Below, piece after piece: positions 8,930-64,000 of a stretch of 64,000 bases of DNA. The stretch is from Candidatus Aenigmatarchaeota archaeon (GTDB lineage: Archaea; Aenigmatarchaeota; Aenigmatarchaeia; CG10238-14; SCSR01). The stretch lies in the NCBI GenBank assembly GCA_039000165.1, contig JAWBTW010000002.1, positions 3,245 to 67,244 of the forward strand, read 5' to 3'. The notes under the pieces are model-generated. The model made no database searches and had not been told where the DNA came from. It saw only the letters and a program-made list of their open reading frames with translations. Both the position numbers and the translations under genes were made by a program. How positions within the stretch are numbered: position 1 is the stretch's first letter; every line of letters starts with the position of its first letter.

Positions 8930-8943
8930 TCGAATTATAAAAA

Positions 8944-9534: not shown

Positions 9535-9540
9535 GTTATC

Positions 9541-10116: not shown

Positions 10117-10160
10117 GAATAAAATTTGGTTTTTTTATCTTATAAGGATTATCACTAATG

Positions 10161-11021
10161 TTAACAATCACCACAAATGGAAGAACCTCCTCCTTCATAG
10201 ACAGCACAAAAACAATACCTTCTTTCAAAGTATTGGGAAGAAGTACCTTGTTCTACATCTATAAAATACCTCACCCAGCAACTATTTCCTGGAAATATTG
10301 CACTACAATTTACCGAAGAATTACCCATAATTTTCCATTCACTTGATAAAGTAGTGTTGGAAGAAAACCCTTCAAGCTCGCTTGTTCTACTTGAAGATTC
10401 ATTTATGTATATACTTGAATGAGTTTCGTTTATTCTGTGGTAAAAATCAGCGTTTATGTTTGAGGAAGTACCAAGTGTTAGGTTATACTGCGTTCCGCCA
10501 TTAGGCAAACCTGAGTTGTTCAAAGCAGGTTTACCCACAGTTCCAGGATTAACCAAACCAAAGGATATGCCTTCTATCAAAGCTTGGGAAATTGTTAGCT
10601 CAATATACTTGCTAACATTAAAAGTTGTTGAATTGGTAGCAATATTTCCAGAAGTATCGTTTGCTGTAACATTAATAACCCAGATTCCAGCAGGCTCCCC
10701 TCCAGCTAGAGTATAATTTTTCTCCCAAACAGAACAATTTTCACCACAAGATATAAGAGTATTAAACATAAGTTCATTTGTTAAAACCAGTGTTCCATTA
10801 CTAGCGGTTAGGTTTAACCAAACGTATTGAACATCATTTTCTGTATCACTAACATTTACTCTTATTATAACTTTTTCATTTATTTTGAAGACTGAAATCT
10901 CTACCAAAGATTCGTTAAACGTTAGTGGGATTTCAACAAAAGGAATAGCGTTTATGCTTACAAAAAAAATAAATGAAAAGAATAAGACGAAAAATAAAAG
11001 CTTTTCTTTCATACCACTCAA
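10161..11021 (-). CDS. secreted Cys-containing surface protein (paralogue of 9541)
   Basis: Signal peptide, many N-glycosylation sequons. The C-terminal module CWVRYFIDVE...YCFCAVYEGGGSSICGDC is paralogous to that of 9541. Confidence 0.45.
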   Translation of the reverse strand: MSGMKEKLLFFVLFFSFIFFVSINAIPFVEIPLTFNESLVEISVFKINEKVIIRVNVSDTENDVQYVWLNLTASNGTLVLTNELMFNTLISCGENCSVWEKNYTLAGGEPAGIWVINVTANDTSGNIATNSTTFNVSKYIELTISQALIEGISFGLVNPGTVGKPALNNSGLPNGGTQYNLTLGTSSNINADFYHRINETHSSIYINESSSRTSELEGFSSNTTLSSEWKIMGNSSVNCSAIFPGNSCWVRYFIDVEQGTSSQYFERRYCFCAVYEGGGSSICGDC

Positions 11022-38739: not shown

Positions 38740-39330
38740 ATGGCAACAAAACTTTTAATACCTAGAGAGCAATATTTGGCATCTGGAATTCATATAGGAA
38801 TGAAGCAAAAGACTAAGGATATGAAGGAGTTTATATACAAAATAAGAGAAGATGGTCTATGCATTCTAAACCTAAAAAAGGTTGATGAAAGGATAAGAGT
38901 TGCCGCAAAATTTCTAGCCAGGCATAGAAAAATTCTTGTAGTAAGCAGAAAATCTGCAGTCCAAGAAGGAATAAAGAAGTTTGCAGAAATTATAGGAGCA
39001 AAAGCCATTGTTGGAAGGTTCATGCCAGGAACTTTAACGAACCCTTCTTACAAAGAATACTATGAAGCAGAGGTTGTTTTTATTTTTGACCCTTTGATAG
39101 ACTATCAAGCTTTGAAAGAAGCAGTAAAGGCAAGAATTCCTGTAGTTGCTCTTTGTGACACTATAAACGAAACTAAGAATATTGACTTAGTAGTTCCTGC
39201 TAACAACAAAGGGAAGAAGGCCTTGGCAACTATTCTTTGGCTTTTGGCAAGAGAAATACTCAAAGAAAGGAAGGAGATAAAAGCTGACTCAGAGTTTACT
39301 TACAAAGTTGAGGATTTTGCCAAAGCTTAA
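38740..39330 (+). CDS. rps2: 30S ribosomal protein S2 (uS2)
   Basis: LLIPREQYLASGIHIGMKQKTKDMKEFIYKIREDGLCILNL is the archaeal uS2 N-terminus. 196 aa. Confidence 0.9.
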   Translation: MATKLLIPREQYLASGIHIGMKQKTKDMKEFIYKIREDGLCILNLKKVDERIRVAAKFLARHRKILVVSRKSAVQEGIKKFAEIIGAKAIVGRFMPGTLTNPSYKEYYEAEVVFIFDPLIDYQALKEAVKARIPVVALCDTINETKNIDLVVPANNKGKKALATILWLLAREILKERKEIKADSEFTYKVEDFAKA

Positions 39331-40040
39331 ACTCTTAGAACTTCTATCCCGTTTTCTCTTATAACAAAAGGGTGAATCAAAGTAGAATGCTTGCTTCTTC
39401 TCATCTTTCTTATGGTCAAAGTTCTTTGATACTCTTTTGCGATATAAACAAAATCAAGCTTAATTATAGTATCGACAACAAATTCTAGAAATTGCAACCT
39501 GCTTACTCCTGCTTCTGACTCTGGAACTTCTGAGATAAAAATTGTGGTCACACCTCTTTCTTTTAAAGCATCTACTAGCGAAACAACTTCAGAGCGTATC
39601 ATATATTTATCTTTAAACATCATCTCTATTGCTGAGATGGAATCTATAACAAGTCTTTTCGCCTTAATTTTATCCACAGCCTCAAGAATTTTTTGAACTA
39701 TTTGATAAAACCCCATTGAAAGAACTTCCTTTTTCTCCACAGGATGCCAAACCCTTTTTATTCTTAAAGGAAGCCATAAAAGCTTGTTCTTTTTTTCAAA
39801 AGGCTCTAAATCCCAGCCAAAAGTTTCTTCTATATCTTTTTTTATATCCTCGACTCTCTCCTCAAAAGTTACGTAGACTGCAGGCTCGTTTTTTAGCAAG
39901 CCATCGTACAAAAATTGAACTGAAAAAAGAGTTTTACCGCTTCCTGTTTTTCCACTAACCATTATAGAAGAAGAGCGAATAAAGCCTCCTCCCATTAGTT
40001 CGTCCAAACCTTTAATTCCTGAGGAAACTCTTTCTGCCAT
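39327..40040 (-). CDS. KaiC-like RecA-superfamily ATPase
   Basis: GIKGLDELMGGGFIRSSSIMVSGKTGSGKT Walker A plus a KaiC/RadB-like core. Single domain, 237 aa. Confidence 0.75.
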   Translation of the reverse strand: MAERVSSGIKGLDELMGGGFIRSSSIMVSGKTGSGKTLFSVQFLYDGLLKNEPAVYVTFEERVEDIKKDIEETFGWDLEPFEKKNKLLWLPLRIKRVWHPVEKKEVLSMGFYQIVQKILEAVDKIKAKRLVIDSISAIEMMFKDKYMIRSEVVSLVDALKERGVTTIFISEVPESEAGVSRLQFLEFVVDTIIKLDFVYIAKEYQRTLTIRKMRRSKHSTLIHPFVIRENGIEVLRV

Positions 40041-52040: not shown

Positions 52041-52346
52041 TTATTCCATCTTTTTCCCTTCTTTATATCCTCTTAAAAGCTTCTCCATCTCTTTTTCATA
52101 TTCTTTTCTAAGCTCAGAAATCTTGCCCAAATAATCTAGCGTTAAAGACCTTATTTTTTCCTGAGCTTCGCTTCTACCTTCTAAAAACTCCCTAAACAAA
52201 GAATAAGCTATGTTACCAGCCAGAAGAGAAGAAATCAGACTTTCCCAATTCCTCACGTAATCCAAATCCTTCTTTATTTCTTCAAAACTTCTCATACTTT
52301 TAAAATAAAGAATAAATTTTAAAAAACTATTCTTTCTTAACAACAA
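52041..52346 (-). CDS. hypothetical small protein
   Basis: 101-aa ORF, overlapping the upstream KaiC-like gene end by 20 nt. Confidence 0.3.
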   Translation of the reverse strand: MLLRKNSFLKFILYFKSMRSFEEIKKDLDYVRNWESLISSLLAGNIAYSLFREFLEGRSEAQEKIRSLTLDYLGKISELRKEYEKEMEKLLRGYKEGKKME

Positions 52347-53055
52347 TTCCTTTATTAGTAATTTCTATGGGATAAATGTCAGTTCCATGCTTAGTGTGAC
52401 GCATCTTTCTTATAAGCAAGCTTCTTGGTGTTCCTCCTCCTGTAAATTCCAAATAATGCAAAACTATTACTGCATCTACTATAAATTCCTCAAAACCAAA
52501 TCTTGATAAGGCTTTTGTTGCTTCTGGTATCTCTCCAACTATCAAGCTTGTTACTCCATACTGTTTTAACCTCATTATTAGCTCGAAAACCTTTGCCCTT
52601 AGCTCAGTAGGGTCAGAAGCCTTTGCAGCAAAAGCTACCAAGCTTAAACCATCTAGAACAAAACGAGTAGCGTTTACTTCCTTTATCCTCTTAAAAATTT
52701 CATAATCCAAATCATCACAAGATTTAGGAAAAACATACTCTATTATACATCTTCCTTGTTGAATGTAAGGCCTGAAGTCCATCCCAAACTGCAAAGCTTG
52801 CGAGATTATATCTTCTGCTGGCTCTTCCAAGGTTATGTAAACTACATTTTCACCCTTTTGCAAGCCATGCCAAATGTATTGAGTACAAAAAATCGTTTTT
52901 CCTGTTCCTGTTTCTCCTGCTATCAAAACTGCTGAGCCTTTAACAAAACCTCCTTCTATTAGTCTATCCAAACCAGGAATTCCTGTTTCTACCCTTTCAG
53001 GTTTTCCTTCCTCTTTTGGTTTTTCAGAAACTTTTTTCATCTTTTTCTTCATCAA
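52327..53055 (-). CDS. KaiC-like RecA-superfamily ATPase (second copy)
   Basis: GIPGLDRLIEGGFVKGSAVLIAGETGTGKT Walker A plus a KaiC-like core. 242 aa. Confidence 0.75.
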   Translation of the reverse strand: MMKKKMKKVSEKPKEEGKPERVETGIPGLDRLIEGGFVKGSAVLIAGETGTGKTIFCTQYIWHGLQKGENVVYITLEEPAEDIISQALQFGMDFRPYIQQGRCIIEYVFPKSCDDLDYEIFKRIKEVNATRFVLDGLSLVAFAAKASDPTELRAKVFELIMRLKQYGVTSLIVGEIPEATKALSRFGFEEFIVDAVIVLHYLEFTGGGTPRSLLIRKMRHTKHGTDIYPIEITNKGIVVKKE

Positions 53056-53151: not shown

Positions 53152-53643
53152 TTATGCTGATTCTACAGGACCTGTAATTCTTGCTGTAAAGTCGTGAGAT
53201 ACGTCACCTGTAGTATAATACTTCCCTGATACGTCAATTGTGTAGCAATCACCAACAGCTACGGAATCTGGATCTGCGCTGGTTATGTCTACTGTTATCT
53301 CTGCGGTTTGACCTGTCTGTAAAGTTGTATCTGCACCTGGCCAAGTTGCTGTATCACCTGTTGGCGACATACTAAAAGTTAGAGGAGAAGCAGCCTTAAA
53401 AGTTATAGCCTCTGGCAAACCATTCGTTATTCTCATCTGCAATCTATTTCCGTTTGCTATCTGTGTTACTTTTATATAACTTCTATCAGTAGAAAAACCT
53501 CCTGGAACAGTTACTTGTGTTCCTGTCCATCTGCAAGGCTTTGTTAGCCCTAGAGCATACAAAGCAGCTACTACGATTATCACTATTAGGATTGCCCATC
53601 CATAAGTCATCAAATACTCCAAAGCGGTTTGTCCTTTCCTCAT
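53152..53643 (-). CDS. archaeal type IV pilin-like protein (class III signal peptide)
   Basis: MRKGQTALEYLMTYGWAILIVIIVVAALYALG has the KG|Q prepilin-peptidase site plus a hydrophobic helix (DUF361-like). Confidence 0.65.
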   Translation of the reverse strand: MRKGQTALEYLMTYGWAILIVIIVVAALYALGLTKPCRWTGTQVTVPGGFSTDRSYIKVTQIANGNRLQMRITNGLPEAITFKAASPLTFSMSPTGDTATWPGADTTLQTGQTAEITVDITSADPDSVAVGDCYTIDVSGKYYTTGDVSHDFTARITGPVESA

Positions 53644-53685
53644 TTTCTCACTAAAATTGAATTTCTTTTTCTTTAAATATAAGCT

Positions 53686-54684
53686 TTATGCTGGCAAGAA
53701 AAACAGGTTTGCTAACAAAAGCCTTGCTCCAATAAAAACCAAAAGCCCTACAGCGATTAAAGCAAAAACAAATTTTATTCCTGCCTTTTCCTTTCCTGCC
53801 TCTATTAAACCAATAATTATTCCTCCAAAAGTTGTTGTTATGATAATGGCTGCCATGGAAAAGTTAAAGATAAATTGAGGATCAATAGAAGGAGCAGCAA
53901 ATTTAATTATGCTTAATCCTCCTACTGCAGAAGTTTCAGGCATCTCTATTCCTGCGCTAACCCTTATTATCATCTCTACTAAATGAGTTGAAATTGCATA
54001 AAGCAAAGGAGCACCAATAGCTACAGCAAAAAGAATAAACATTCCGTACATAGCAACATTAGCCCTTACTTCTTTTCTTAAAGATTGAGTTTGTCTTGCA
54101 TCGTTTGCAGTTTCATCAAGCAAAGTAGCTAGTTCTCCTCCTGAACGCAAGCCTTCAACTATAAGCCTTATAGCTCTGTTAAGCATTTTCGACTCAATCC
54201 TCTTAGGAATTTCAAGCAAAGCGTCCTCTATGGTTCTTCCTGTTAAAGCTTCCTTTGCCGCCCTTTTTATTTCTATTTCTAAGGGCCCAAACTCAGGTCT
54301 TGCAGCAAGAAGCAAAGCTCGATCAGGAGTAATTCCTGCCCTAATGTTTGCTGCCATTAGTTGCAAGGCATCTGGTAAAATTTCATCAACAAAAGAAGCC
54401 TTCCTGTCAGCTATTAGAATTAGAATAGCATGCTCAACCAAAACAAAAACACAGAGAAAACCAAGAAAAGCAATTATAAAGTAGAGAAAATTTATGAAAC
54501 CGATCAAGAAAAGGGAAAGGCTTATTATGAAGCTGAGGAAAATTTCTACCAATAAAGTAAAGCCGATAAAAATATCAACGCTAGTTGGAATTCCACAACA
54601 AACAAGTTTTCTTTCTAGATATTCTCTATAACCTTTTGGCATCGCTCTTCCGATTTTCCTGTAAATCTTAACAAAACTTATCAT
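53686..54684 (-). CDS. TadC/FlaJ-like pilus assembly membrane protein (T2SSF domain), C-terminal half-equivalent
   Basis: T2SSF-type cytoplasmic domain between TM blocks. Separated from the upstream T2SSF gene by 1 nt. Confidence 0.65.
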   Translation of the reverse strand: MISFVKIYRKIGRAMPKGYREYLERKLVCCGIPTSVDIFIGFTLLVEIFLSFIISLSLFLIGFINFLYFIIAFLGFLCVFVLVEHAILILIADRKASFVDEILPDALQLMAANIRAGITPDRALLLAARPEFGPLEIEIKRAAKEALTGRTIEDALLEIPKRIESKMLNRAIRLIVEGLRSGGELATLLDETANDARQTQSLRKEVRANVAMYGMFILFAVAIGAPLLYAISTHLVEMIIRVSAGIEMPETSAVGGLSIIKFAAPSIDPQFIFNFSMAAIIITTTFGGIIIGLIEAGKEKAGIKFVFALIAVGLLVFIGARLLLANLFFLPA

Positions 54685-54685
54685 C

Positions 54686-55594
54686 TTATACCTCCAGGCT
54701 TGGCCTCCTAACTTTTATCAAACCAATAAACATGAATTGGAAGATTATCAAGAATCCCAAAATTAGGTATAGGAAAATGTCTAAGGGCAGGAATGAAAGA
54801 CCAAAGAAAGAAGAAAGAATTATTATGAAAGTTATTCCTAGAGTTGGAATAATAACTGCAGTCATCAAATACATCAAAGCCATAGGATTAAGCTGAGCTC
54901 CATACCTTCTAATCTCAATTCTCTGGTCTATTGCTAAGCCATTAACTATTTCTCTTAAAGTTGTTGCTATGTCTGAGCCAGCTCTCATTCCATTAACTAG
55001 TTGCCAAATAACCCTTCTAAAGTAGAGAGAAGGATTCCTAAAAGACATGTTTTCCAAAGCTTCTATCTCAGAAACTCCTGCGTTTATTTCCTTTACTGCT
55101 TCTTCAAATTCTTCTGAAACCAAACCATAATCTCCTGCAGCAACAGAAACCATAGCGTTAAAAAGAGTAACTCCTGACCTAACTTGAATCAGCAAATGCC
55201 TTAAAGCATAGAGCAAATCTCTTTCCAAAAGCCTTATTTTCTTAATCAAGAGCATTTTTGGGTAAAGAATTACGTAATAAAAAACAAAGAAAGTTATTCC
55301 TATATCTAGGGAAAGCATGGTAACAAGATAAGTTGGAGTAAAGGCAGCTAAAGGATTTAAAGGATTAGAAATTATCCCCAAGAAAATTGTTATGAAAATC
55401 ATTAGAGCAAAATAAAAAAATGCGGTAAAAATTGCTAAGGCAATGTATTCCCTAGGGTTCAAATCAACCTTTGCTTGTTTAAGCTCATAACTTAAAGAAG
55501 GAAAAAGCTTTGCCATCTCTTTGCTTACTCCAAAAAACTTCCTTGCATAATTCAAAGCTACTTCTGTTTTGAAAGGAAGTAGGGGAATCCTCAA
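54686..55594 (-). CDS. TadB/FlaJ-like pilus assembly membrane protein (T2SSF domain), N-terminal half-equivalent
   Basis: T2SSF-like domain plus TM helices. Start overlaps the ATPase stop by 4 nt. Confidence 0.65.
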   Translation of the reverse strand: MRIPLLPFKTEVALNYARKFFGVSKEMAKLFPSLSYELKQAKVDLNPREYIALAIFTAFFYFALMIFITIFLGIISNPLNPLAAFTPTYLVTMLSLDIGITFFVFYYVILYPKMLLIKKIRLLERDLLYALRHLLIQVRSGVTLFNAMVSVAAGDYGLVSEEFEEAVKEINAGVSEIEALENMSFRNPSLYFRRVIWQLVNGMRAGSDIATTLREIVNGLAIDQRIEIRRYGAQLNPMALMYLMTAVIIPTLGITFIIILSSFFGLSFLPLDIFLYLILGFLIIFQFMFIGLIKVRRPSLEV

Positions 55595-58500
55595 GTTTTC
55601 AACTCCTTCATCAAATCTCCTAACAATCTCTCTGGACTAATATTAGCTTTTATTGCACTTATTATTTTTTCTGGTTCAGAATAATACTCAGAAATAACAA
55701 AACCAACAGTATTGACAGTATTAATATTGTGCCTAACTAACCAATCAAGAACCATTTGCCTTTGAGCAAGCTCTTGAGCTATTTCTTGATCTGTCATTCC
55801 TGTGTAAAGCCTTAAGTCGTCCATTATTCTCATGCTTGTCTTGAAAGGAATAATTTCATCCTTATCTGCTCTCCACCTAAACAAAGTGTTAAGCTGAACT
55901 CCTCTTTCACTTGGAATAATTTCAGAAACTTGAAAAACTCTCCTTATTCCTTTTCTTCTGTCTCTGTGCATTGCTAGTATAATATGCAAAGCTTCTAAGA
56001 GCATTTCTGGCACGTTTATCGGTGGATTAACTAATCTTCTAACAGTTTGCTCTGCAGTGTCTGCATGCAAGGTTGAATAAACTGAATGACCAGTGTGCAT
56101 AGCTTCGAACAAAACTTCTGCTTCCCTTGCCCTTCTTATTTCTCCTACTATTATTCTGTCTGGCCTCATTCTCAAAGCGTTTACCATTAAATCTAACATA
56201 GAAACTTCTCCCTTTCCTTCAGGGTTCGGCTCTCTTGTTGTTAGAGGGACCCAGTGCAAGAAATCTGGCAACTGAATTTCTCTTGTGTTGTGCGCTATTA
56301 TATTGTTACAAACAAAACTTTCATTTCCTGGAACACTTATATCATAAACATAACCTTCAAACTCTCTTTCCTTTATTTCCTTTACTCTATCCCAAAAGAT
56401 GTCGTTACTAGCTAACTTTATTAAAATTTCATTTCCACCATCGTTTGCAATCTTACTCACAATTTCTTTCAACAATTCTCTCCCTATGTTAGATTTCATG
56501 TAATTTCTGTGCCAAGATTTCCATCCCTTATAACTTCTTTTTACTCCAACCTCTTCTTTTAACAATTTTTTAAGTCTGAGATAAAAGTGCTTTGGCAAAG
56601 GAACTACATCAGAAACATCATGGACTTTTTTATGCAACAAACTAAAAAGTTTTTCGTTGTTTTTCTCTTGCAAAAATCCAACTTCATAAAAGAAAGTTTT
56701 TAAAAATTTTGAACCAGAGATTGTTGCTTGATAAGTATTATCCTTAAACTTTTTTCCTATTCTTAAAGGAATTCCAAACCTTAGCAAAAGTGTTTGAATA
56801 TCTTTTAGAAGATTGAATGAAACAGAAGAAACTGCAACATCCTTTGACCTTACCCAACCATCTCCTGAAAAGTATCCTTTTAAAAATGCTGCTAGCTCTT
56901 CTTTTTCCAGACCAAAAACCCAACTTGGAACTCTTTTAGTATAGACATTTCCTTCTAACCCTAAAACTTCTTTGAAAAATGTTTTAAACAGTTTTGAATT
57001 AAGCATCAAGGAAATTTTATCACTATGCAATTTACAACCCATTCTAAACCTTTTTGCAATTTTCCTAATAATTTTTTTACTTTCCTCATCAGTAACAGAA
57101 AAAATAACAGAATTTCTATCGTAACAGCCATCTGCAAGCCAAAGCCCAGCTACTAATGCTAAATCTTTATTTACGCTAACTTTTAAAGGTAAGAAAGAAC
57201 CGCTTCTAGATTTTATTTTTCCTTTTCTTGGTTTAACGTTTAGCTTCTGCAGCACTTCAGCTTTCAAAACTCCTTTTTTTAAGTAATAGTAAGCTTGTTG
57301 CTTTGATAAAAGTTTTGATTCTACCAGCTTTTTAAAGTTTTTTCTAATAAATTCTTTGTCCACTTCAACAAAACATCCTTTGAATTTCTCAAGCTCTAAG
57401 GAAAGGTCAAAAACTTTCTTTTTTCCTTCATAAGGGAGTATTCTTGGTACTGCAATAAAACTTCCAACTTTTATTTCTTTTCCAGGAATTGGCACTATTT
57501 CACCGTTTTCGTTCAAACCAAAAAGAGAATGATCTTCTGTAACTGAAATCTTTCTTCCGCTAGCTAAAATTATATCTAAAACTTTCTTTTTTACTTTATG
57601 CCTAATAAAGTGGGAAGGTAGAGCAAGCTTAATTTTTCCATCTTTATCCATGGAAAAAATTTTTATGTTATCTTTGTTTTCAACTTTTTCTTCACCATCG
57701 GGGAGTAAAGAATCTATTAGTTCGCCAATAGCCTTTCTAAAGATTTCTCCTTTCCTTTCAAAAAGGATTTCACAATCGCCAGTGACGCTATCCTCTATCG
57801 AAACAATTCTATGGTTTGGTGGAATGAAAGTTGTTAAAACGTTCAGAATAGAAGTTTTTCCTGTTGCAGTCCCCCCAGAAACTATTATGTTCATTTCATA
57901 ATGAATGGCAAGCCAAAGCAAGGAAGCTACCTCTTTGTTTATTGTATTGTTTCTTATCAAGTCAGTTATCGTCCAAGGTTTTCTCGCAAATTTTCTTATC
58001 GTAATAGTATTTCCTTTTGTTGAAATCGGGAATAAAGTTGCGTTAACTCTGTCTCCTGTTGTTAGGTGCGCATCCATCAAAGGGTTTAAACTAGTTATTT
58101 GCCTTCCAACTTTCCTTCCTATCATGCTTGCATAGTTGTAAATTTCCAAATCACTTTTTATTACTATGTTAGTCTTAAGCCAACCATACTTTTTATGATA
58201 AACCCACAAAGGCTCTTGAGAATTGTTTATAACTATTTCTTCCAGATTTTCATCCTTAAGCAAAACTTCAACTTTTCCCAAGCCTAGCATCTCATGAACT
58301 AAAGTACCTGCCAAAATTCTTTTTTCTTCCTCAGAAATTCTTGGTAATTGTCTTTGAATTAGTTCTAAAGCCTTGTTGAAAAACCTTTGCTTCAAATCTT
58401 CCATCACTCTTGGGTCAAGAATTTCCTGAACTTTCACTCCAACTTCAGTTATTAACCTTTCCCTTATAGCAGATAAAACTGCTAGGGTTGCTTCCTCAAA

Positions 58501-58611
58501 CTTTGGTAAAGAAACTTCATAAATGGGAACAAATTCACCTTCTATTTTAACTATGTTAACCTCTGCAGGCACACCTTCTGCAACAAGCTTATAGCTATCC
58601 AATATTCTCAT
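55591..58611 (-). CDS. type IV pilus/archaellum-type secretion ATPase (TadA/FlaI/KlbA-like) containing an intein
   Basis: Walker A GGTATGKTS. Extein Asp box RIVSIED|TREIQLP is interrupted. Walker B DRIIVGEIR and a His box are present. The 505-aa extein is normal for the family. Confidence 0.85.
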   Translation of the reverse strand: MRILDSYKLVAEGVPAEVNIVKIEGEFVPIYEVSLPKFEEATLAVLSAIRERLITEVGVKVQEILDPRVMEDLKQRFFNKALELIQRQLPRISEEEKRILAGTLVHEMLGLGKVEVLLKDENLEEIVINNSQEPLWVYHKKYGWLKTNIVIKSDLEIYNYASMIGRKVGRQITSLNPLMDAHLTTGDRVNATLFPISTKGNTITIRKFARKPWTITDLIRNNTINKEVASLLWLAIHYEMNIIVSGGTATGKTSILNVLTTFIPPNHRIVSIEDSVTGDCEILFERKGEIFRKAIGELIDSLLPDGEEKVENKDNIKIFSMDKDGKIKLALPSHFIRHKVKKKVLDIILASGRKISVTEDHSLFGLNENGEIVPIPGKEIKVGSFIAVPRILPYEGKKKVFDLSLELEKFKGCFVEVDKEFIRKNFKKLVESKLLSKQQAYYYLKKGVLKAEVLQKLNVKPRKGKIKSRSGSFLPLKVSVNKDLALVAGLWLADGCYDRNSVIFSVTDEESKKIIRKIAKRFRMGCKLHSDKISLMLNSKLFKTFFKEVLGLEGNVYTKRVPSWVFGLEKEELAAFLKGYFSGDGWVRSKDVAVSSVSFNLLKDIQTLLLRFGIPLRIGKKFKDNTYQATISGSKFLKTFFYEVGFLQEKNNEKLFSLLHKKVHDVSDVVPLPKHFYLRLKKLLKEEVGVKRSYKGWKSWHRNYMKSNIGRELLKEIVSKIANDGGNEILIKLASNDIFWDRVKEIKEREFEGYVYDISVPGNESFVCNNIIAHNTREIQLPDFLHWVPLTTREPNPEGKGEVSMLDLMVNALRMRPDRIIVGEIRRAREAEVLFEAMHTGHSVYSTLHADTAEQTVRRLVNPPINVPEMLLEALHIILAMHRDRRKGIRRVFQVSEIIPSERGVQLNTLFRWRADKDEIIPFKTSMRIMDDLRLYTGMTDQEIAQELAQRQMVLDWLVRHNINTVNTVGFVISEYYSEPEKIISAIKANISPERLLGDLMKELKT
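56287..57789 (-). mobile_element. intein (501 aa) with LAGLIDADG homing-endonuclease domain in the secretion ATPase
   Basis: Block A SVTGDCEIL (Ser1), block B TEDH, two LAGLIDADG motifs (LVAGLWLADGCY, LAAFLKGYFSGDGWV), C-terminal ...IIAHN followed by +1 Thr. Inserted at the conserved IED|T site. Confidence 0.8.
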
Positions 58612-59258
58612 TTTCTCATCCTTAGCTCAGGTTCGCCTATTGCAGGATAAAAAATTTCAGCCAAACCATGATCTTCCAAAATCTTTGCCCATTCTTCTAT
58701 AACTTCTTTGCTTACATTAAACATTTTTTCCAGCTCGCTAAACTTTACTCTTTTCTTTTCCTTTATAACAGCAAGTATTCTGTCTATATCAGTTTCCATC
58801 ATGCTCGGAACTTTTTCCACAGTAGAGACTTTTTCAGAAACTGCTTCTGCCATGAGCTTAGCAAGAGATTTTATTATATCGTCTCGAGCAATTATTCCTA
58901 CAATATTATTCTTTTTATCAACTACAGGAAGCCTTTTAACTTTGTATAAACTCATCAATAAAACAGCTCTATCTAAACCATCCTCTTCATTAGCTACTAT
59001 AACAACTTTTTTCATTATTTCCTTTACTTTTGTCACACCTTTTTCTTTTAAGGCTCCTTCATCTATTGCTAACAAATTTTTCTTTCCTACCAAATCCAAA
59101 ATGTCTGCTTCTGTTATTATTCCAACTATTTTTCCTTCTTTAACAACAGGTAAGCCTGAAACTTTTGATTCTGCAAGAATTTTTACAACTTCCATTATGC
59201 TTTGTTCAGGAGAAACTGTAATAACATTTTTTGACATAACATCCTTTACTTTAAGCAT
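58608..59258 (-). CDS. CBS-domain pair protein
   Basis: Two CBS repeats (VMSKNVITVSP...SGLPVV; VKEIMKKVVIVANEE...KRLPVV). C-terminal about 70 aa possibly wHTH. Stop overlaps the ATPase start. Confidence 0.75.
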   Translation of the reverse strand: MLKVKDVMSKNVITVSPEQSIMEVVKILAESKVSGLPVVKEGKIVGIITEADILDLVGKKNLLAIDEGALKEKGVTKVKEIMKKVVIVANEEDGLDRAVLLMSLYKVKRLPVVDKKNNIVGIIARDDIIKSLAKLMAEAVSEKVSTVEKVPSMMETDIDRILAVIKEKKRVKFSELEKMFNVSKEVIEEWAKILEDHGLAEIFYPAIGEPELRMRK

Positions 59259-59296
59259 ACTTATCTAATAATTAATTTGATTTTCTTAATTAAAAT

Positions 59297-60310
59297 TTAG
59301 CAAGGATTAAGCAAAGGATTCCCAAAAAGTTGATATTTCATTAAACGTTGCTGATCGTCAATTTCATTATCAATTCTAAACCAGTTTGGTACATCTGGGT
59401 TGTTTATCCAATAACAACTCAAATCTTCTGACCGAATCGAAGAGTTCCAGTAAAGAAAATCTACAACAGTCCTGTTTGGCTGAGGTTCTATACCTAAAGC
59501 TTTTAACTTTTGAATATTAACAAAACTTTCCAACCCTATTAACATTGAACTCTGATAATTTGCTACCAGCCTTCCTTCCAGTCTATCTAAAAAGCTTGGC
59601 CCGTATAGCGAAGAATGAAAATACCCATTTTCTGCATCGTTAGCTAAATTTTCGAAATGATAGTTTCCTGAAGAATCTTGATAAGTATGATTGCTTTCAA
59701 AAGGACACTTCCAAATTGTTTTTCTATATCTTCCATTGGTATATAAAGGTGCTAAAGGATCCTCTAAACCTTCAATAGAAATCAAAACTTCCTTTTGCCC
59801 ATTTCTATAAATCCTTATTGTTTCAGTGTTATCAGAAATGTTTATCGTGAAATTTATTCTGAAAAGGATGTTGAAACTATCAAAAGGCTTTATTTCTATT
59901 TCGCTTGTGTTTAGCTTGAATTTAAAAGTTTTGTTTGCTTTTTTCTCTATTTCTTCCATCCAGTAGGTTATGCTATTATTGTACATGATATCATTTCTGC
60001 TTCCTTCTAGGGTTCCATTTTGAGCTAGTTCAAAAATTTTTTCTATAGCTTTACCTTGTTCAAAAGGTTTTCCTCCTAAAGTAACGTTATCAACAGCTGC
60101 GATCAAAGCCCTTTTTGCTGAAATTCTTAAAGCTCTTTCTATATCCTCTTCTATATTTTTTGCAAAATAGTGCAATTGGTCAGAAATAATTTTTTCTGCT
60201 GCATCTTTCCTTAAGGAATAGGAAATGTTTAAGTAAGTGAGTAGAATTGCTACTACCGAAGCTACAATCAAAACTGAAATTATAGTATAGATTAAACCTT
60301 TCATGCCCAC
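59297..60310 (-). CDS. pilin-like/membrane-anchored protein
   Basis: N-terminal MGMKGLIYTIISVLIVASVVAILL has a KG-hydrophobic class-III-like signal. Many N-x-S/T sequons. Confidence 0.4.
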   Translation of the reverse strand: MGMKGLIYTIISVLIVASVVAILLTYLNISYSLRKDAAEKIISDQLHYFAKNIEEDIERALRISAKRALIAAVDNVTLGGKPFEQGKAIEKIFELAQNGTLEGSRNDIMYNNSITYWMEEIEKKANKTFKFKLNTSEIEIKPFDSFNILFRINFTINISDNTETIRIYRNGQKEVLISIEGLEDPLAPLYTNGRYRKTIWKCPFESNHTYQDSSGNYHFENLANDAENGYFHSSLYGPSFLDRLEGRLVANYQSSMLIGLESFVNIQKLKALGIEPQPNRTVVDFLYWNSSIRSEDLSCYWINNPDVPNWFRIDNEIDDQQRLMKYQLFGNPLLNPC

Positions 60311-63213
60311 ACCTTTATTTCAAGATTAGTCAAACCCCAAAGAGAAGGAACTGCTGCAACGTACAAAGTTTCGAACAAAATCTCTGGAGTTATCATTATG
60401 TCTATTGGGTTATTCTCGGTTCCTGGCCACCAATTTCTATCACTAATATCTAAGGGATTTTCTGGCAAGTCAGGTGGTCTGATAAAGTTCAATTGGTTTA
60501 AAAGCATAAGAAAAGCATAGTCAACTGCGTTATGTGTAACGTTTAAATCTTGAACTCTTCCCAAAGTTGCGTTAAATTTAGGAACGTTTCTTCCTATTAC
60601 TACCGCATAAGAACCGTCTGCAGTTCCATCATGATCTCTATCATAGTAAACAGTTATGTTTCTCCCTTCTATGTAAGGAAAAACGATTGAGGAATAAGCT
60701 GTATAAGACTTAAAGCTTGCTGTATAAATTACTCTATCACGAGAGGAGCAAATGCTACTAGTATTAGTTGGGCCTAAGCCTAAAACAAGCCCAACAGTAT
60801 TGTTTTCACCAGATTTTATATAGCTAGGAGAAAACTGAATGCTGAAAGGATCACCAAGGTAAACGTAATTGCTTCCAAAAGAGTCTAAACTCCAAGTAAT
60901 ATTCCAGTTATGAGCTGAGTTGTTAACATAAACCTTTCTTGACCAGAAATCAGAAGAATAGGAAGTTCTTATTACATCTAAAACTTTTACTTGTTGAGGA
61001 ACAAAAAATGTTCCATTACAACCAAAAGGGTTTGTTTCAACTTTTAAAGAAATTTCCCCGTATTCTTCTTTTGCTTCAGGTTCGTAGTAGAATTCTATGT
61101 AAGAGTCTGGATAAAGATAATTTCCTTTAAAAACTTCCCCTGTTATGTTTATTCTTTGAGCGACATAAGCTCCTGCAAAATATTCTGCAAACTGCTTGTA
61201 AATTCTTTTTAGTTCTTCATAATCATTACTTTGAGCGTATCTTACTGCTCTACAATCAGCTGTACTTCCATTTGGTAGTGTTACTTGACCTATCCAAGTA
61301 TTTGAAGAACAATTCCAACAGGCTATTCTTTGAAGAGTATATTCGTCTGCCTCGTCGCCAAAAGCAACAGCAAAAACTACATAACCTTTATTTCTTGCTT
61401 CACACGCTTTATATACACTACAATTTACAGGATTATCCCATGGTGATGGACAAGAACCGCAAGATGTCATTCTATTTGCAATACCGTCGCTCATCACTAA
61501 CATACCTCTAAACTTTTCAGAAGAACTTAAAGTATCTAGCATTTGGATTGCCATATTTATTCCGCAACATATACAAGTGGTAGACAAAGGCCTATAAGAA
61601 TTAATTTGATTAATAAGCTGAGTTGTATTATTAGTCAAACTAAGCACTCGGTCTACATCCTGGCTATAACTTACTAACCCAACTCTATTACCAGAGACAT
61701 TTAAAACTGTATAAACAAAATCTCTATCAACTTCCCTTGCCATATCCATTTTTTGTCGACAATATCTTCTTTGAACGTCGCAATTTGGAAAACCTATATA
61801 TGGGCATCTTCCTCGACTATACCTGCAATAATAACTCCAGCAAAAGTTGCCAATAAATCTTATACCGCACCATTCGTTTGTATAATTGAAATTAGTAGAA
61901 TCGCCTAAGACATCAACGCCTTCCATACTTCCTGAAACATCAGTTATCAAAACAGCATCAGCCAATCCTACACCACCATAAGCTTGAAACTCTTCACTTC
62001 CAAACCTTATCGGCACAGTTCTGTTGCTAACATTTCCTTTCAAAGCATTTATTCCACCAAATTTTTCAGAAATATTTTCAAAACTTAAATCAATAGTTAC
62101 TTCACCAGTAGCGTTCGTTCTGTTAAGTTCTATTCCACCTATGTTTAAAAACATCTCAATTCCTATTCCATCGGGAGTTGTTAAGTTACTATAATAGTGT
62201 AAATGAATTCTCATTCCATTAGTTTCATCTAAGGTTCCTGGCAAGTAAAAAGAATCATAAAGGTTTATCAAACCATAAATTCCTGGGAAATAATACCTAT
62301 AAACATTTTTTCTAGGAGAAGCAAATTCCGTAGTATCATAAGTAACTTTTATATAGCCACCTCCGATAAACTGCTCGTTTATATCAGGAGAGGTAAAGTT
62401 TATGTCAAAAGCAGTCTCATTGCCATAACCTTTGTTTATTTGGTTCAAACAGTGTTGCCCGTTACTTTCATTAATAACAAAGCTATCTACTGCAAAATAA
62501 CCAGAAGAAGTTTTGTTAAAAATCCCACAAAAAGTTTTGTTCACATAAAGAGTAAAATTGCTCCCAAAAGTCCCCTCTATATAAATTGAGGAAATGTTAG
62601 CATCCAAAGGAATATCTCTAATTATTGCTGTTATGTTTCCTTGACCAACAAAACCTCCAAAGTAAAAGTAAGAAGCTGTGTTTTTCCCTAAAATTTTTTC
62701 CAAATAAGCCCTTGCAGTATATCCTTCTACTGGTTTGCCAACAGCATAACCTGAAACTGTTGTTTTTGAAACCGAAAGCAAGCTTTTTACTGGTTTGCTC
62801 CTATTTGCTAAAGAAGTTCCATCCATAGAAACTTCATAACCCAAATTCTCAGGAATAGTTAGGTTAAGAATCGATTCTGTTATGTTTTTTGCCATGTTTT
62901 TTGCTTCTTCAGTTCCGTTAACCCACAAGCTTCCTATAACATCTAGCAAACTTTTATCCATATCTTCCTCTCTCAAAATTCCTTGATCTTTCAAATCCTT
63001 TATCGCAGGAAACTTATCTACAACATAAGAAACTTTTGTTTTTGTTAAGAGTTCTAAGGAATCTTGTGCAAGGTAGTGAAACCTTTCATAAGTTTGATGC
63101 TGAACAAAAGAAGTCGTTCCTATAAAAGAAACAACTATAGCAAAAATTACTAATAAAGAAATTGCCAGAATTGCCTCTAATGAAAAAACCTGACCTTTCA
63201 TTTTTATCGCCAT
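60301..63213 (-). CDS. large pilin-like protein with von Willebrand factor A domain (candidate tip adhesin)
   Basis: N-terminus MAIKMKGQVFSLEAILAISLLVIFAIVV is a class III signal. MIDAS motif LITDVSGSMEG. 970 aa with numerous glycosylation sequons. Confidence 0.6.
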   Translation of the reverse strand: MAIKMKGQVFSLEAILAISLLVIFAIVVSFIGTTSFVQHQTYERFHYLAQDSLELLTKTKVSYVVDKFPAIKDLKDQGILREEDMDKSLLDVIGSLWVNGTEEAKNMAKNITESILNLTIPENLGYEVSMDGTSLANRSKPVKSLLSVSKTTVSGYAVGKPVEGYTARAYLEKILGKNTASYFYFGGFVGQGNITAIIRDIPLDANISSIYIEGTFGSNFTLYVNKTFCGIFNKTSSGYFAVDSFVINESNGQHCLNQINKGYGNETAFDINFTSPDINEQFIGGGYIKVTYDTTEFASPRKNVYRYYFPGIYGLINLYDSFYLPGTLDETNGMRIHLHYYSNLTTPDGIGIEMFLNIGGIELNRTNATGEVTIDLSFENISEKFGGINALKGNVSNRTVPIRFGSEEFQAYGGVGLADAVLITDVSGSMEGVDVLGDSTNFNYTNEWCGIRFIGNFCWSYYCRYSRGRCPYIGFPNCDVQRRYCRQKMDMAREVDRDFVYTVLNVSGNRVGLVSYSQDVDRVLSLTNNTTQLINQINSYRPLSTTCICCGINMAIQMLDTLSSSEKFRGMLVMSDGIANRMTSCGSCPSPWDNPVNCSVYKACEARNKGYVVFAVAFGDEADEYTLQRIACWNCSSNTWIGQVTLPNGSTADCRAVRYAQSNDYEELKRIYKQFAEYFAGAYVAQRINITGEVFKGNYLYPDSYIEFYYEPEAKEEYGEISLKVETNPFGCNGTFFVPQQVKVLDVIRTSYSSDFWSRKVYVNNSAHNWNITWSLDSFGSNYVYLGDPFSIQFSPSYIKSGENNTVGLVLGLGPTNTSSICSSRDRVIYTASFKSYTAYSSIVFPYIEGRNITVYYDRDHDGTADGSYAVVIGRNVPKFNATLGRVQDLNVTHNAVDYAFLMLLNQLNFIRPPDLPENPLDISDRNWWPGTENNPIDIMITPEILFETLYVAAVPSLWGLTNLEIKVWA

Positions 63214-63713
63214 ACTATCATCTGCATCATAGCCAAATCTCTATTTCCGTTAAAGTCTATCAGGAAATACCTCTTTATTGAAACTACAATTTTTGGGTTG
63301 TTCGGAAAGCTTCCTATCTCATAAGGGTTTGCTGGGTCGAAATCCTCTCCTGTAATGTTAGCAAATCTTATGTATAAATTGTAGCCACCAAAACCAAGAC
63401 TACTTTTAATTTTATCTATACCTGCACTCAAAAATTTTGAAATTTTCTCTTCGCTCACTATATATTCTGTATCTCCTGCCAAACCAAAAGCTTTCACGTT
63501 ATTTGAATCCCAATCTTCTGGTACTCCTTTGCTTCTTATAAGCAGGTCAGAAGCCCTTTGCAATTTTTTATCGAGCATGTTAATTTCATAAGCATAACTT
63601 GCCTGTTCAACTAACTGATTGGTTATCAAAAGCCAAATTGTAAAAACACTAACAAAAAATATTAAGCTCATGAAAACATCAAAAGTGAAAACTTGAGCTT
63701 TTTTCTTAAGCAC
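63204..63713 (-). CDS. pilin-like protein (class III signal peptide)
   Basis: MLKKKAQVFTFDVFMSLIFFVSVFTIWLLI is a KKA|Q-type prepilin-like N-terminus. Confidence 0.5.
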   Translation of the reverse strand: MLKKKAQVFTFDVFMSLIFFVSVFTIWLLITNQLVEQASYAYEINMLDKKLQRASDLLIRSKGVPEDWDSNNVKAFGLAGDTEYIVSEEKISKFLSAGIDKIKSSLGFGGYNLYIRFANITGEDFDPANPYEIGSFPNNPKIVVSIKRYFLIDFNGNRDLAMMQMIVWR

Positions 63714-64000
63714 TTATGTTCACCATCCCATTAATATTTTTAATTAAATTTTTTCCAAAAGTAAAGTTTCCATTAATATTGCTTGTGATTAATGCAACGG
63801 AATAGGAAGTTTTTGTTGTGTTTATGGTTAAAACATTTCCGTAAATGGTTATGTTATAAATAAACGTCCCTATTTTTTCAGGCAAGTAATATTCTTTTGA
63901 AAATCCGTCTCCACTTAAATGAGCTAAATTTATTTGATTTGCAGCCTCATCACCTATTCTCTGAACCTCAAAAATCATGCTTTGCTCTTGAATTTGAGTA
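63706..64000 (-). CDS. pilus-operon protein, 5' end beyond window (partial)
   Basis: The ORF frame remains open to the window edge. Co-directional with the pilin genes. Confidence 0.3.
   Translation of the reverse strand, partial: TQIQEQSMIFEVQRIGDEAANQINLAHLSGDGFSKEYYLPEKIGTFIYNITIYGNVLTINTTKTSYSVALITSNINGNFTFGKNLIKNINGMVNISA

Follow-up and report, generated by a model that had tools for sequence, protein, structure and literature searches.

A probable Epd/Tad-like type IV pilus operon with a vWA-containing pilin-like protein in Candidatus Aenigmatarchaeota

We analysed a 64,000-nucleotide stretch of DNA from Candidatus Aenigmatarchaeota, a tiny DPANN archaeon of symbiotic type (contig JAWBTW010000002.1; hereafter, the window), and found that it most probably carries the main type IV pilus operon of this archaeon, Epd/Tad-like in kind, with a set of minor pilins that would present a vWA-containing adhesin, a reading to which we assign a probability of roughly 0.7. 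The kind of machinery, which the original prediction had called a Tad-like archaeal pilus locus, is supported by Pfam matches to T2SSE and, twice, to T2SSF, together with class-III-like N-termini on the pilin-like proteins. The range 53152–64000 holds nine tightly packed ORFs, all on the minus strand, with overlaps or short gaps throughout (intergenic distances of −10 to +42 nt). Eleven co-directional genes had been claimed for this range, a number reached only by adding two genes outside it, a KaiC-like gene and an ORF of 101 aa (Table 1).

Within the window, the set comprises three complete pilin-like genes and a fourth truncated by the window end, a CBS–winged-helix (CBS-wHTH) gene, an intein-interrupted T2SSE ATPase gene, two single-domain T2SSF genes and the gene of a 163-aa pilin. 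The operon runs beyond the window end, and a near-identical contig (L001) shows its start two pilin-like genes further upstream. The full operon, completed from that contig, has ten genes, six of them for prepilin-like proteins, in the order p136, p135, p169, vWA970, p337, CBS-wHTH, ATPase, T2SSF-a, T2SSF-b and pilin163. No multi-TM ORF with the GxGD motif of a prepilin peptidase was found within the 64-kb window, and none is annotated in the flanks of L001 or of the related loci L002 and L003.

Table 1. Features of the pilus locus and of the two genes downstream of it, in window coordinates; a slash in a sequence marks the predicted cleavage or insertion site.
Feature	Position	Strand	Remarks
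p135, C-terminal part of a ~135-aa pilin-like gene	63706..64000	-	Truncated by window end; no in-frame stop up to base 64000
p169, 169-aa pilin-like, predicted minor pilin	63204..63713	-	N-terminus MLKKKA/QVFTFDVFMSLIFFVSVF
vWA970, 970-aa modular pilin-like protein with vWA domain, predicted adhesin subunit	60301..63213	-	N-terminus MAIKMKG/QVFSLEAILAISLLVIFAIVV
vWA domain of vWA970, aa 418-680	61174..61962	-	Cys-rich low-confidence insert at aa 439-483
MIDAS DxSxS, D425-V-S427-G-S429	61927..61941	-	Completed by T546 and D576
p337, 337-aa pilin-like	59297..60310	-	N-terminus (MG)MKG/LIYTIISVLIVASVVAILL
CBS-wHTH, 216-aa cytoplasmic protein	58608..59258	-	CBS pair aa ~1-135; winged-helix-like module aa ~150-215
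T2SSE/PilB-FlaI-family assembly ATPase precursor, 1006 aa	55591..58611	-	Pfam T2SSE 1.9e-30
501-aa intein with LAGLIDADG endonuclease domain	56287..57789	-	Between D274 and T776 of conserved SIED/TRE motif
T2SSF-a, first platform protein, 302 aa, TadB/TadC-type half-size	54686..55594	-	Pfam T2SSF 2e-15
T2SSF-b, second platform protein, 332 aa, one T2SSF domain	53686..54684	-	Pfam T2SSF 5e-16
pilin163, 163-aa pilin, predicted major subunit	53152..53643	-	MRKG/QTALEYLMTYGWAILIVIIVVAAL, Flp-like G/XXXXEY
KaiC/FlaH-like single-domain ATPase, 242 aa	52327..53055	-	96 nt downstream of pilin163; outside the range 53152-64000
101-aa alpha-helical ORF	52041..52346	-	Overlaps KaiC-like gene by 20 nt

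The assembly ATPase contains an intein, as had been predicted, with Pfam matches to Intein_splicing (1.9e-27) and LAGLIDADG_3 (3e-19) in addition to T2SSE. Its boundaries (S275...AHN775/T776) were set by alignment to an intein-less orthologue reading IEDTREIQLPD, and all hallmarks are present: the nucleophile S275, a block B TEDH, the C-terminal ...IIAHN775/T776, the LAGLIDADG domain and a conserved host motif. Removal of the intein restores SIEDTREIQLPD, identical to the intein-less orthologue, and leaves a protein of 505 aa, the same length as that orthologue, to which the two exteins are 74% and 71% identical. The best PDB matches of the spliced ATPase were A. fulgidus GspE (3e-74), FlaI (7e-58) and CpaF (5e-54), a ranking by similarity; placement of the ATPase and platform in the Epd/Tad clade is putative.

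Two separate T2SSF genes, each with one Pfam domain as originally described, encode the membrane platform; the start of the first overlaps the ATPase stop by 4 nt, and the two products are paralogues (28% identity over 132 aa). The junction between them reads GGAGGTATAAGATG, and the TAA-G-ATG reported at 54684–54688, which had been left as either a genuine split or a frameshift, is indeed there. It is a genuine split, not the product of a frameshift: each of the related loci (39/39) has two distinct, neighbouring genes and none has a fusion, and an SD-like GGAGG precedes the ATG of the second. Likeness to Aap, also proposed, is unsupported, because the platform is split into two genes whereas the Aap and Ups pili of Sulfolobales have a single two-domain platform gene, besides their accessory genes AapX and UpsX. 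The split is instead an established trait of the Epd/Tad type, a gene fission reported from Epd-like and Tad systems (PMC6668835) as well as from archaeal clades 1 and 2 (PMC4858521).

Class III signals were identified by our own motif rule, [KR][GAS]X followed by a hydrophobic helix, applied to all six frames of the 64-kb window. Four long ORFs were positive, every one inside the pilus locus; besides these, the rule picked out just one ORF of 100 aa and three short ORFs that overlap longer ones on the opposite strand. The four complete genes fit the motif, which is conserved in their homologues, in line with the claim of at least four such N-termini, and by the same rule the full operon has six products of this type, among them p135, whose complete gene in L001 starts ...FKA/QVVGEFIYLFGAFCFFLVAF. 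Across 82 related loci, the motif was kept in 46/50 members of the p135 family, 48/53 of the p169 family (with Q always at +1), 53/68 of the p337 family, and 40/50, 78/91 and 40/41 of the other three, and occurred in 0/52, 1/18 and 2/42 members of the ATPase, KaiC and CBS/wHTH control families. The class III signals exceed chance; the Pfam model Class_IIIsignal (PF04021) matched below threshold (19.4 bits against a cut-off of 23.7).

The predicted major subunit, pilin163, has an N-terminal segment of ~30 aa that is nearly invariant across 39 homologues and a variable C-terminal domain, and its G/XXXXEY motif (KG/QTALEY; E5-Y6) is invariant. An AF2 model gave a helix followed by a beta-sandwich (pLDDT 88.6), for which Foldseek returned weak matches to an Aap pilin and an archaellin (E ~1e-3, TM ~0.4). 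A TATA-like box lies upstream of the gene and oligo-T tracts downstream, and some loci carry tandem paralogues. At the other end of the block, the p169 gene overlaps its neighbours by 8 and 10 nt. The p337 gene, without a Pfam or NCBIfam match, is a constant partner on the 3' side of the vWA gene, which it overlaps by 10 nt here and follows in 65 of the 82 loci; its product has 11 sequons where 3.5 are expected.

The 970-aa protein carries the vWA domain and MIDAS motif originally proposed for it. A VWA profile search, suggested as a check, gave a Pfam VWA match of 33.7 bits (cut-off 23.8), alongside VWA_2, and the MIDAS residues (DVSGS at aa 425–429, T546 and D576) are invariant or nearly so in the homologue alignment, the full DxSxS..T..D being present in 67/86 homologues from species-representative genomes and incomplete in 19/86. 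In the AF2 model (pLDDT 81.9), a helix of 47 residues (12–58) and a helical region (61–119) are followed by a beta-rich region (125–406), the vWA domain (418–680) and a second beta-rich region (705–969). The protein has 20 Cys and 34 N-glycosylation sequons against ~11 expected, and a threefold sequon excess is confined to it and p337. Among the top matches of the vWA domain, by structure and by sequence, are the pilus tip adhesins Mfa5, PilB, PitA, SpaC, RrgA and GBS104. We rejected the idea that the protein is unique to this genome: it is one member of a large family distributed across DPANN, in which some longer members add DUF2341. Neither outcome named beforehand as telling against the original prediction was seen: the VWA profile matched, and class-III-like N-termini are present and conserved. 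These data support reading the product as pilin-like and its vWA/MIDAS domain as genuine, with bacterial pilus-tip adhesins as the nearest counterparts; the protein's location at a tip, its ligand and a role in host attachment are suggested by analogy only.

In the predicted structure, large beta-rich regions flank the vWA domain on both sides and it does not end a compact pilin module, so that incorporation into a filament would not be self-evident. Moreover, the +1 residue is hydrophobic (F/I/L/Y) in most homologues of the vWA protein and p337, whereas the four small pilin families have Q there; this makes cleavage of the vWA protein and p337 less certain and a membrane-anchored state possible. 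Both features, and the very large size of the protein, would suit one that, with p337, is no subunit of a type IV pilus filament and acts as a membrane-held base anchor, an envelope-spanning adaptor or a stand-alone surface adhesin; a comparable non-filament role has been hypothesised for bacterial TadG. We consider this unlikely, given that the [KR][GA] before the helix is conserved, with G or A at the aligned −1 position in 86/86 homologues, which a plain signal anchor would not need, that the gene is embedded among small pilin-like genes with which it is translationally coupled and that the nearest vWA structures belong to distal tip adhesins.

The same block occurs in its entirety in Aenigmat-, Nano/Woese-, Micr-, Alti- and Nanohalarchaeota, with 478 genome hits and 933 protein clusters, and the synteny common to these DPANN phyla is p136-p135-p169-vWA-p337-(wHTH)-ATPase-T2SSFa-T2SSFb-pilin. 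In some loci the gene for the shaft pilin lies elsewhere or is multicopy, and the position of that gene is less well conserved than the minor-pilin block, which is also larger. This last pattern fits a different machine, a short pseudopilus for secretion or uptake (T2SS-, bindosome- or competence-like) that possibly serves transfer of material between DPANN cell and host, with the vWA protein as a docking module and not a simple adhesin. [quoted passage not shown] The characterised relatives with a split platform, however, Epd of M. maripaludis and bacterial Tad, make adhesive pili (PMC6668835). As most loci have a dedicated, highly conserved Flp-like pilin and a search of the conserved genes revealed no substrate-binding protein, no nuclease and neither a DNA-binding nor a channel component, we regard such a machine as very improbable. 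Archaeal vWA proteins near type IV pilus loci have earlier been read as regulatory, but an intracellular protein of ArnB/MoxR-partner type controlling pilus expression is hardly credible here, given the class-III-like signal and hydrophobic helix at the N-terminus, the sequon excess and 20 cysteines, best sequence matches that are extracellular pilus adhesins and an operon in which no MoxR/GvpN ATPase or FHA protein was found.

Two further genes may tune the pilus. The CBS-wHTH gene, whose stop overlaps the ATPase start by 4 nt, matches Pfam CBS (3e-30) and, weakly, MarR and EAP30. The CBS-pair partner described for this locus is present, but it is not what is conserved: a wHTH module of ~65 aa adjoins the ATPase in 40/41 loci and the CBS pair occurs in only 12/41, the Micrarchaeota orthologue having the wHTH without CBS. 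The CBS pair is thus lineage-specific, and the conserved partner of the ATPase is the small wHTH module. Beyond the shaft pilin gene, the KaiC/FlaH-like protein (Pfam KaiC 5e-62; NCBIfam KaiC_arch_3 and FlaH below threshold, FlaH at 58 bits against a cut-off of 194) is encoded at the same position in the Aenigmatarchaeota loci L002, L007 and L009 and is probably an accessory or regulatory ATPase. Loci of the Epd/Tad clade characteristically have a secondary ATPase, TadZ or, in Epd, a FlaH-like protein. The adjoining 101-aa ORF, which had no significant family match in profile searches, is only tentatively grouped with the pilus locus; L002 has an 87-aa gene in its place, but no sequence similarity between the two was detected.

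Among described systems, the Epd pilus of Methanococcus maripaludis and the Epd-like clade 1–2 pili (Makarova 2016; Denise 2019) share with this operon the archaeal T2SSE ATPase, a platform made of two single-T2SSF genes, several minor pilins with class III signals in one operon, a large adhesin-like class-III protein and, probably, an associated KaiC/FlaH-type ATPase. The DPANN locus differs from them in lineage, in lacking an EppA-type peptidase, in the vWA/MIDAS on its large subunit, in the coupling of a wHTH (with or without CBS) gene to the ATPase gene and in its pilin, which has 163 aa with a beta-sandwich against the ~70 aa of clade 1 pilins. With the bacterial Tad/Flp system (type IVc; TadA/CpaF, TadB, TadC, Flp, TadE/F, TadG) it shares the order ATPase, platform half, platform half, the G/XXXXEY pilin motif (G/QTALEY) and a pseudopilin set with a large vWA-containing protein, the analogue of TadG. 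It differs from Tad/Flp in having no secretin, TadZ or TadV, in an ATPase closer by score to archaeal GspE and FlaI than to CpaF, and in a pilin twice the size of Flp (short Flp/Epd pilins have ~50–80 aa).

The vWA protein has close parallels in function and fewer in architecture. PilB of Streptococcus sanguinis (PDB 7b7p; PMC8179133) likewise joins a class III N-terminus, an alpha-1 helix and a MIDAS-bearing vWA on one polypeptide and likely shares the adhesin role; this vWA-bearing modular pilin has been proven to adhere in a MIDAS-dependent way and is placed at the pilus tip in a model (PMC8179133). PilB has ~460 aa, however, and its vWA is grafted through a short linker to the C-terminus of a pilin module that is compact and complete, whereas in the modelled 970-aa protein a helical region and a ~280-aa beta-rich region come before the vWA and a beta-rich region of ~265 aa comes after it. 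The archaeal protein also has a Cys-rich insert and a dedicated partner, p337, and is probably N-glycosylated. In PilY1/PilC with FimU-PilVWX (T4aP) and in GspH-K (T2SS), a conserved block of four to five minor (pseudo)pilins primes assembly and presents a large adhesin, as proposed here, and in P. aeruginosa PilY1 this adhesin bears a vWA domain. The defining feature of PilY1, however, which does not belong to the pilins, is its C-terminal beta-propeller, whereas the 970-aa protein has a pilin-like N-terminus. Identity with PilY1/PilC was rejected, as Pfam found VWA and VWA_2 only and no beta-propeller, with no sequence homology to PilY1 beyond the vWA domain; so was identity with TadG, whose N-terminal TadE/TadG-like (Pfam Tad) region was not detected despite the vWA, no Tad or TadE-like Pfam domain being found at E<=0.01. 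The PilY1/TadG-like analogy originally drawn therefore holds for function, and none of the domains that define those proteins was detected. Mfa5 of the type V pilus tip and the sortase-pilus adhesins RrgA, GBS104, SpaC and PitA also place vWA/MIDAS at pilus tips; their assembly systems (type V, sortase) are unrelated, so the resemblance reflects convergent use of the domain.

On the pilus reading that we prefer, a prepilin peptidase encoded elsewhere in the genome would cleave the prepilins after the conserved G/A, and the ATPase would become active only once protein splicing is done. A hexamer of this ATPase on the T2SSF-a/b platform would then pull pilins from the membrane and polymerise them into a shaft built from the 163-aa G/QTALEY pilin. 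The five-gene block p136, p135, p169, vWA970 and p337 would supply a minor-pilin priming or tip complex that holds the vWA domain, with its heavy glycosylation, at the distal end, where the MIDAS-bound metal ion could contact an acidic ligand on a surface, for DPANN most likely that of a host cell. Assembly or expression may be modulated by the wHTH protein, which in this operon is joined to a nucleotide-sensing CBS pair, and by the KaiC/FlaH-like ATPase.

Taken singly, the parts are all of known kinds: the split platform, the KaiC association, the large adhesin-like class-III protein and the ATPase intein. DPANN archaea are mostly obligate episymbionts whose means of host recognition and attachment are largely unknown; the conservation of the gene set across DPANN lineages makes the pilus encoded here a plausible, though hypothetical, attachment organelle. 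Our operon offers a concrete candidate for host attachment in these archaea, a type IV pilus motor coupled to a MIDAS-bearing vWA subunit. A broader proposal, rather unlikely as a whole and put forward tentatively, is that the five-gene block (three small pilins, the vWA modular pilin and its partner of 330–400 aa) and the Flp-like shaft pilin form a DPANN-wide host-attachment organelle, whose vWA/MIDAS tip would bind a component of the host-cell surface and be one determinant of specificity in DPANN episymbiosis, a parallel to the type IV pili shown to drive episymbiosis in Saccharibacteria, and that the system, by uniting a platform split by gene fission with a G/XXXXEY pilin and a vWA pseudopilin, could be the archaeal lineage closest to the Tad ancestor, TadG included. 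The idea of modular pilins, in which a pilin bears a functional module, was established in bacteria with PilB of S. sanguinis; the bacterial survey did not extend to Archaea, the domain to which the idea is carried here. The Epd/Tad group of split-platform pili would likewise gain a DPANN lineage, a point relevant to the proposal that the bacterial Tad pilus arose from archaea.

Nine ORFs occupy the minus strand at 53152-64000, in place of the eleven genes of the original prediction, whose domain assignments (vWA, T2SSE with intein, two T2SSF and a CBS pair) were matched by Pfam. The window is AT-rich (G+C about 33%), and gene spacing across the locus is operon-like: from the gene at 63706 to that of pilin163, a 163-aa pilin-like protein, intergenic distances are -8, -10, -10, +38, -4, -4, +1 and +42 nt. 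On a near-identical contig (L001, Logan SRR21619498) this gene set recurs, with two more genes upstream. There, the upstream gene p136 encodes a 136-aa protein with the N-terminus MRKA/QAALEYL (slashes within sequences mark predicted processing junctions), the gene truncated in the window has its full-length, 135-aa form (...FKA/QVVGEFIY), and unrelated genes (polyprenyl synthase, archease) lie 5′ of p136/p135. Because L001 extends the operon upstream, we put the complete operon at ten genes, six of whose products have class-III-type N-termini.

Features of the pilus locus (window positions unless a protein or related locus, L, is named), with class III motif counts per family
Feature	Coordinates	Strand	Evidence	Class III motif
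p136				40/50
p135, cut by window end	63706-64000	minus	reading frame still open at base 64000	46/50
p169	63204-63713	minus		48/53
vWA970, 970-aa vWA protein	60301-63213	minus	Pfam VWA, 33.7 bits (cut-off 23.8), and VWA_2	78/91
p337	59297-60310	minus		53/68
CBS protein, 216 aa	58608-59258	minus	Pfam CBS pair, 3e-30	2/42 (CBS/wHTH, control)
ATPase, 1006 aa	55591-58611	minus	Pfam T2SSE, Intein_splicing, LAGLIDADG_3	0/52 (control)
T2SSF-a	54686-55594	minus	one Pfam T2SSF domain	
T2SSF-b	53686-54684	minus	one Pfam T2SSF domain	
pilin163	53152-53643	minus		40/41
KaiC/FlaH-like single-domain ATPase	52327-53055	minus	96 nt downstream of pilin163 gene	1/18 (KaiC, control)
101-aa helical ORF	52041-52346	minus	overlaps KaiC-like gene by 20 nt	
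N-terminal helix, 47 residues	vWA970 aa 12-58		AlphaFold model	
Helical region	vWA970 aa 61-119		AlphaFold model	
Beta-rich region	vWA970 aa 125-406		AlphaFold model	
vWA fold	vWA970 aa 418-680		AlphaFold model	
Cys-rich low-confidence insert in vWA fold	vWA970 aa 439-483		AlphaFold model	
Second beta-rich region	vWA970 aa 705-969		AlphaFold model	
Tandem vWA or vWA-p337 copies	L004:10001-20145; L048:4324-14601; L055:2835-13842; L078:2994-9835; L082:5552-15000			

Class III signals were scored as [KR][GAS]X ahead of a hydrophobic stretch without charged residues. In a six-frame scan of the window four long ORFs matched, all within the pilus locus; the remaining matches were one 100-aa ORF and three short ORFs antisense to longer ORFs. 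Motif conservation was then counted across 82 related loci, with the ATPase, KaiC and CBS/wHTH families as controls. In these loci the +1 residue is almost always Q in the four small pilin-like families and mostly F, I, L or Y in the vWA and p337 families, and the pre-helix residue of vWA homologues is G or A in 86/86 genome-derived sequences of an HMM alignment. Pfam Class_IIIsignal scored p136 at 19.4 bits, below its cut-off of 23.7, and the other proteins lower still; p169, p337 and p135 had no Pfam match at E ≤ 5, and an NCBIfam search found none for any pilin-like or T2SSF protein of the locus.

The AlphaFold model of vWA970 (pLDDT 81.9) begins with a long helix like that of type IV pilins. 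Its MIDAS metal site (DxSxS...T...D; D425, S427, S429, T546 and D576) is invariant or nearly so in an alignment of 36 full-length homologues; among 86 homologues taken from species-representative genomes, it is complete in 67. The protein holds 20 cysteines and 34 N-x-S/T sequons versus about 11 expected, and p337 holds 11 versus 3.5, with sequon numbers at expectation in the cytoplasmic genes of the locus; this composition fits extracellular, probably N-glycosylated proteins. Within the vWA domain the Cys-rich insert (…NEWCGIRFIGNFCWSYYCRYSRGRCPYIGFPNCDVQRRYC…) adjoins the MIDAS, whose Thr falls in a conserved TCICCG motif (aa 546-550). By analogy with PilB and RrgA, the insert could form a disulfide-stabilised 'arm' beside the metal site. 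Some DPANN genomes carry two or three tandem vWA genes or vWA-p337 pairs, including 1200-1900-aa forms, which suggests an adhesin module diversifying inside one pilus locus.

The features of pilin163 fit a major pilin. Among its 644 detectable homologues, the first ~30 residues (KG/QTALEYLMTYGWAILIV...) are nearly invariant and the remainder is variable; after cleavage, E5-Y6 matches the Flp-type G/XXXXEY motif. The model (helix plus beta-sandwich, pLDDT 88.6) retrieved mostly generic Ig-like sandwiches with Foldseek, along with weak matches (E ~1e-3) to the Aap pilin of S. acidocaldarius and to an archaellin, consistent with, but short of proof of, membership of that fold. The gene is duplicated or triplicated in tandem in some loci. 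Read by eye, a TATA-like TTATATTT stands about 35 nt 5′ of the pilin163 ATG and oligo-T tracts follow its stop.

The half-size platform proteins T2SSF-a and T2SSF-b are paralogues (28% identity over 132 aa) whose junction, GGAGGTATAAGATG, had been read as either a genuine split or a frameshift at TAA-G-ATG. The genes are separate and adjacent in 39/39 related loci showing both (gap -8 to +18 nt in 38, +155 nt in one), with no fused ORF among them, and we therefore regard the split as ancestral rather than a sequencing error; this conservation, together with an SD-like GGAGG within the end of T2SSF-a before the T2SSF-b ATG, rules out a frameshift. A PDB sequence search with both proteins gave no match. 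The arrangement is the same platform fission known for Epd-like and Tad systems (PMC6668835), and archaeal clades 1 and 2 are reported to have two tadC-like genes (PMC4858521).

Alignment to the intein-less orthologue of a related locus (L002) places the ATPase intein at S275-N775 (501 aa; window 56287-57789, minus strand), between D274 and T776 of SIED/TREIQLPD; its removal leaves exactly 505 aa, the length of that orthologue. All splicing motifs (S1, TEDH, AHN/T) and both LAGLIDADG motifs are found; the ATPase, interrupted by the intein, therefore depends on protein splicing. The closest matches of the spliced form are, in order, A. fulgidus GspE (3e-74), FlaI (7e-58) and CpaF (5e-54). Orthologues in other loci have inteins at different sites, or none, and their sequences suggest that inteins invaded the gene repeatedly and independently. 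One (L054:16580-20227) has extra sequence with an ...AHN/T junction beside the P-loop region, another (L007:14429-17542; 1037 aa) has SIEDTRE uninterrupted, and most DPANN orthologues lack extra sequence. The archaeal 'KlbA' inteins lie in ATPases of this family.

The CBS pair noted in the original prediction is present, but not as a core partner: only aa ~150-215 of the protein, a winged-helix-like (wHTH) module with weak MarR and EAP30 matches, is conserved beside the ATPase gene. The module occurs in 40/41 loci and the CBS pair in 12/41, all Aenigmatarchaeota-type; a Micrarchaeota orthologue has the module N-terminally, without CBS. Spanning ~65 aa (xETDIDxIL...VExWAKILEDHGLxEIxYP; also in L003:14522-15301), the module is encoded directly 5′ of and overlapping the ATPase gene in 40/41 DPANN loci, fused to a CBS pair, to long coiled-coil or low-complexity tails, or to nothing. 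No curated family matched it above threshold. Rather than acting as a transcription factor, it may be a so far uncharacterised component associated with the ATPase.

Downstream of pilin163, a KaiC gene holds the equivalent position in L002, L007 and L009, and the 101-aa ORF has no detectable sequence conservation. The two are reminiscent of the KaiC and small helical ('DEATH-like') protein pair tied to some archaeal pilus loci (Makarova et al. 2016). Some 13 kb away from the pilus locus there is another gene for a KaiC-like ATPase (MAERVSSGIKGLDELMGGGF...GKTGSGKT; 39327-40040, minus), and an ORF cluster at 7475-11021 (484, 196, 191 and 286 aa), with signal/anchor-like N-terminal hydrophobic segments, may encode additional surface proteins.

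The best homologues of vWA970 share 83% identity. Further homologues belong to Micr-, Nanohal- and Altiarchaeota and related groups; many are 1200-1500 aa long, some with DUF2341. A genome scan by a peptide-pattern method with the single sequence gave no confirmed relative, which we attribute to a limit of the method because the same scan with an alignment of homologues (A1), covering one genome per species, turned up 478 stretches encoding a relative; nearly all of the 80 retrieved are DPANN. An exhaustive profile search gave 933 clusters (50% identity) at E ≤ 1e-30. The order p136-p135-p169-vWA-p337-(wHTH)-ATPase-T2SSFa-T2SSFb-pilin recurs across these DPANN phyla, with the machinery half inverted in some loci. 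One Aenigmatarchaeota contig has a second, divergent ATPase and T2SSF pair (L007:273-2936) about 6 kb 5′ of the conserved operon, so more than one type IV filament machine exists in at least some of these genomes.

Bacterial minor-pilin/PilY1, GspH-K and PilB systems (PMC8179133) suggest by analogy that the five-gene block (p136, p135, p169, vWA970 and p337) would form a priming or tip complex displaying the vWA/MIDAS domain on a shaft of pilin163, with the spliced ATPase powering assembly from the T2SSF-a/b platform. The subunits would be processed by a prepilin peptidase encoded elsewhere, none being found among the multi-TM ORFs of the 64-kb window, and the wHTH-CBS protein and KaiC/FlaH-like ATPase would modulate the system. 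In the chief alternative, vWA970 and p337 would instead stay membrane-anchored, as hypothesised for TadG; the size of the two proteins and the atypical residues at +1 leave room for this reading. An ArnB-type cytoplasmic regulator was rejected as a reading of vWA970, given its signal peptide, its content of sequons and Cys, and the lack of MoxR or FHA partners.

As an archaeal type IV pilus, this kind of system is already known: earlier surveys (PMC4858521; preprint 10.64898/2026.04.22.720090) cover archaeal pili with split platforms, with KaiC association and with large adhesin-like class-III proteins, and DPANN pilus islands with unrecognisable pilins are on record (PMC6393860). The searchable literature discusses archaeal vWA proteins near pilus loci only as ArnB-type regulators, the 2026 survey (preprint 10.64898/2026.04.22.720090) does not mention vWA, the modular-pilin survey is limited to bacteria (PMC8179133), and targeted searching turned up no publication describing a vWA pilin from DPANN. 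Because these searches gave no precedent, we consider the new element to be a modular vWA pilin of Archaea, set within a minor-pilin block that is conserved in DPANN. A host-attachment or Tad-ancestor reading, if confirmed, would make the locus more significant.
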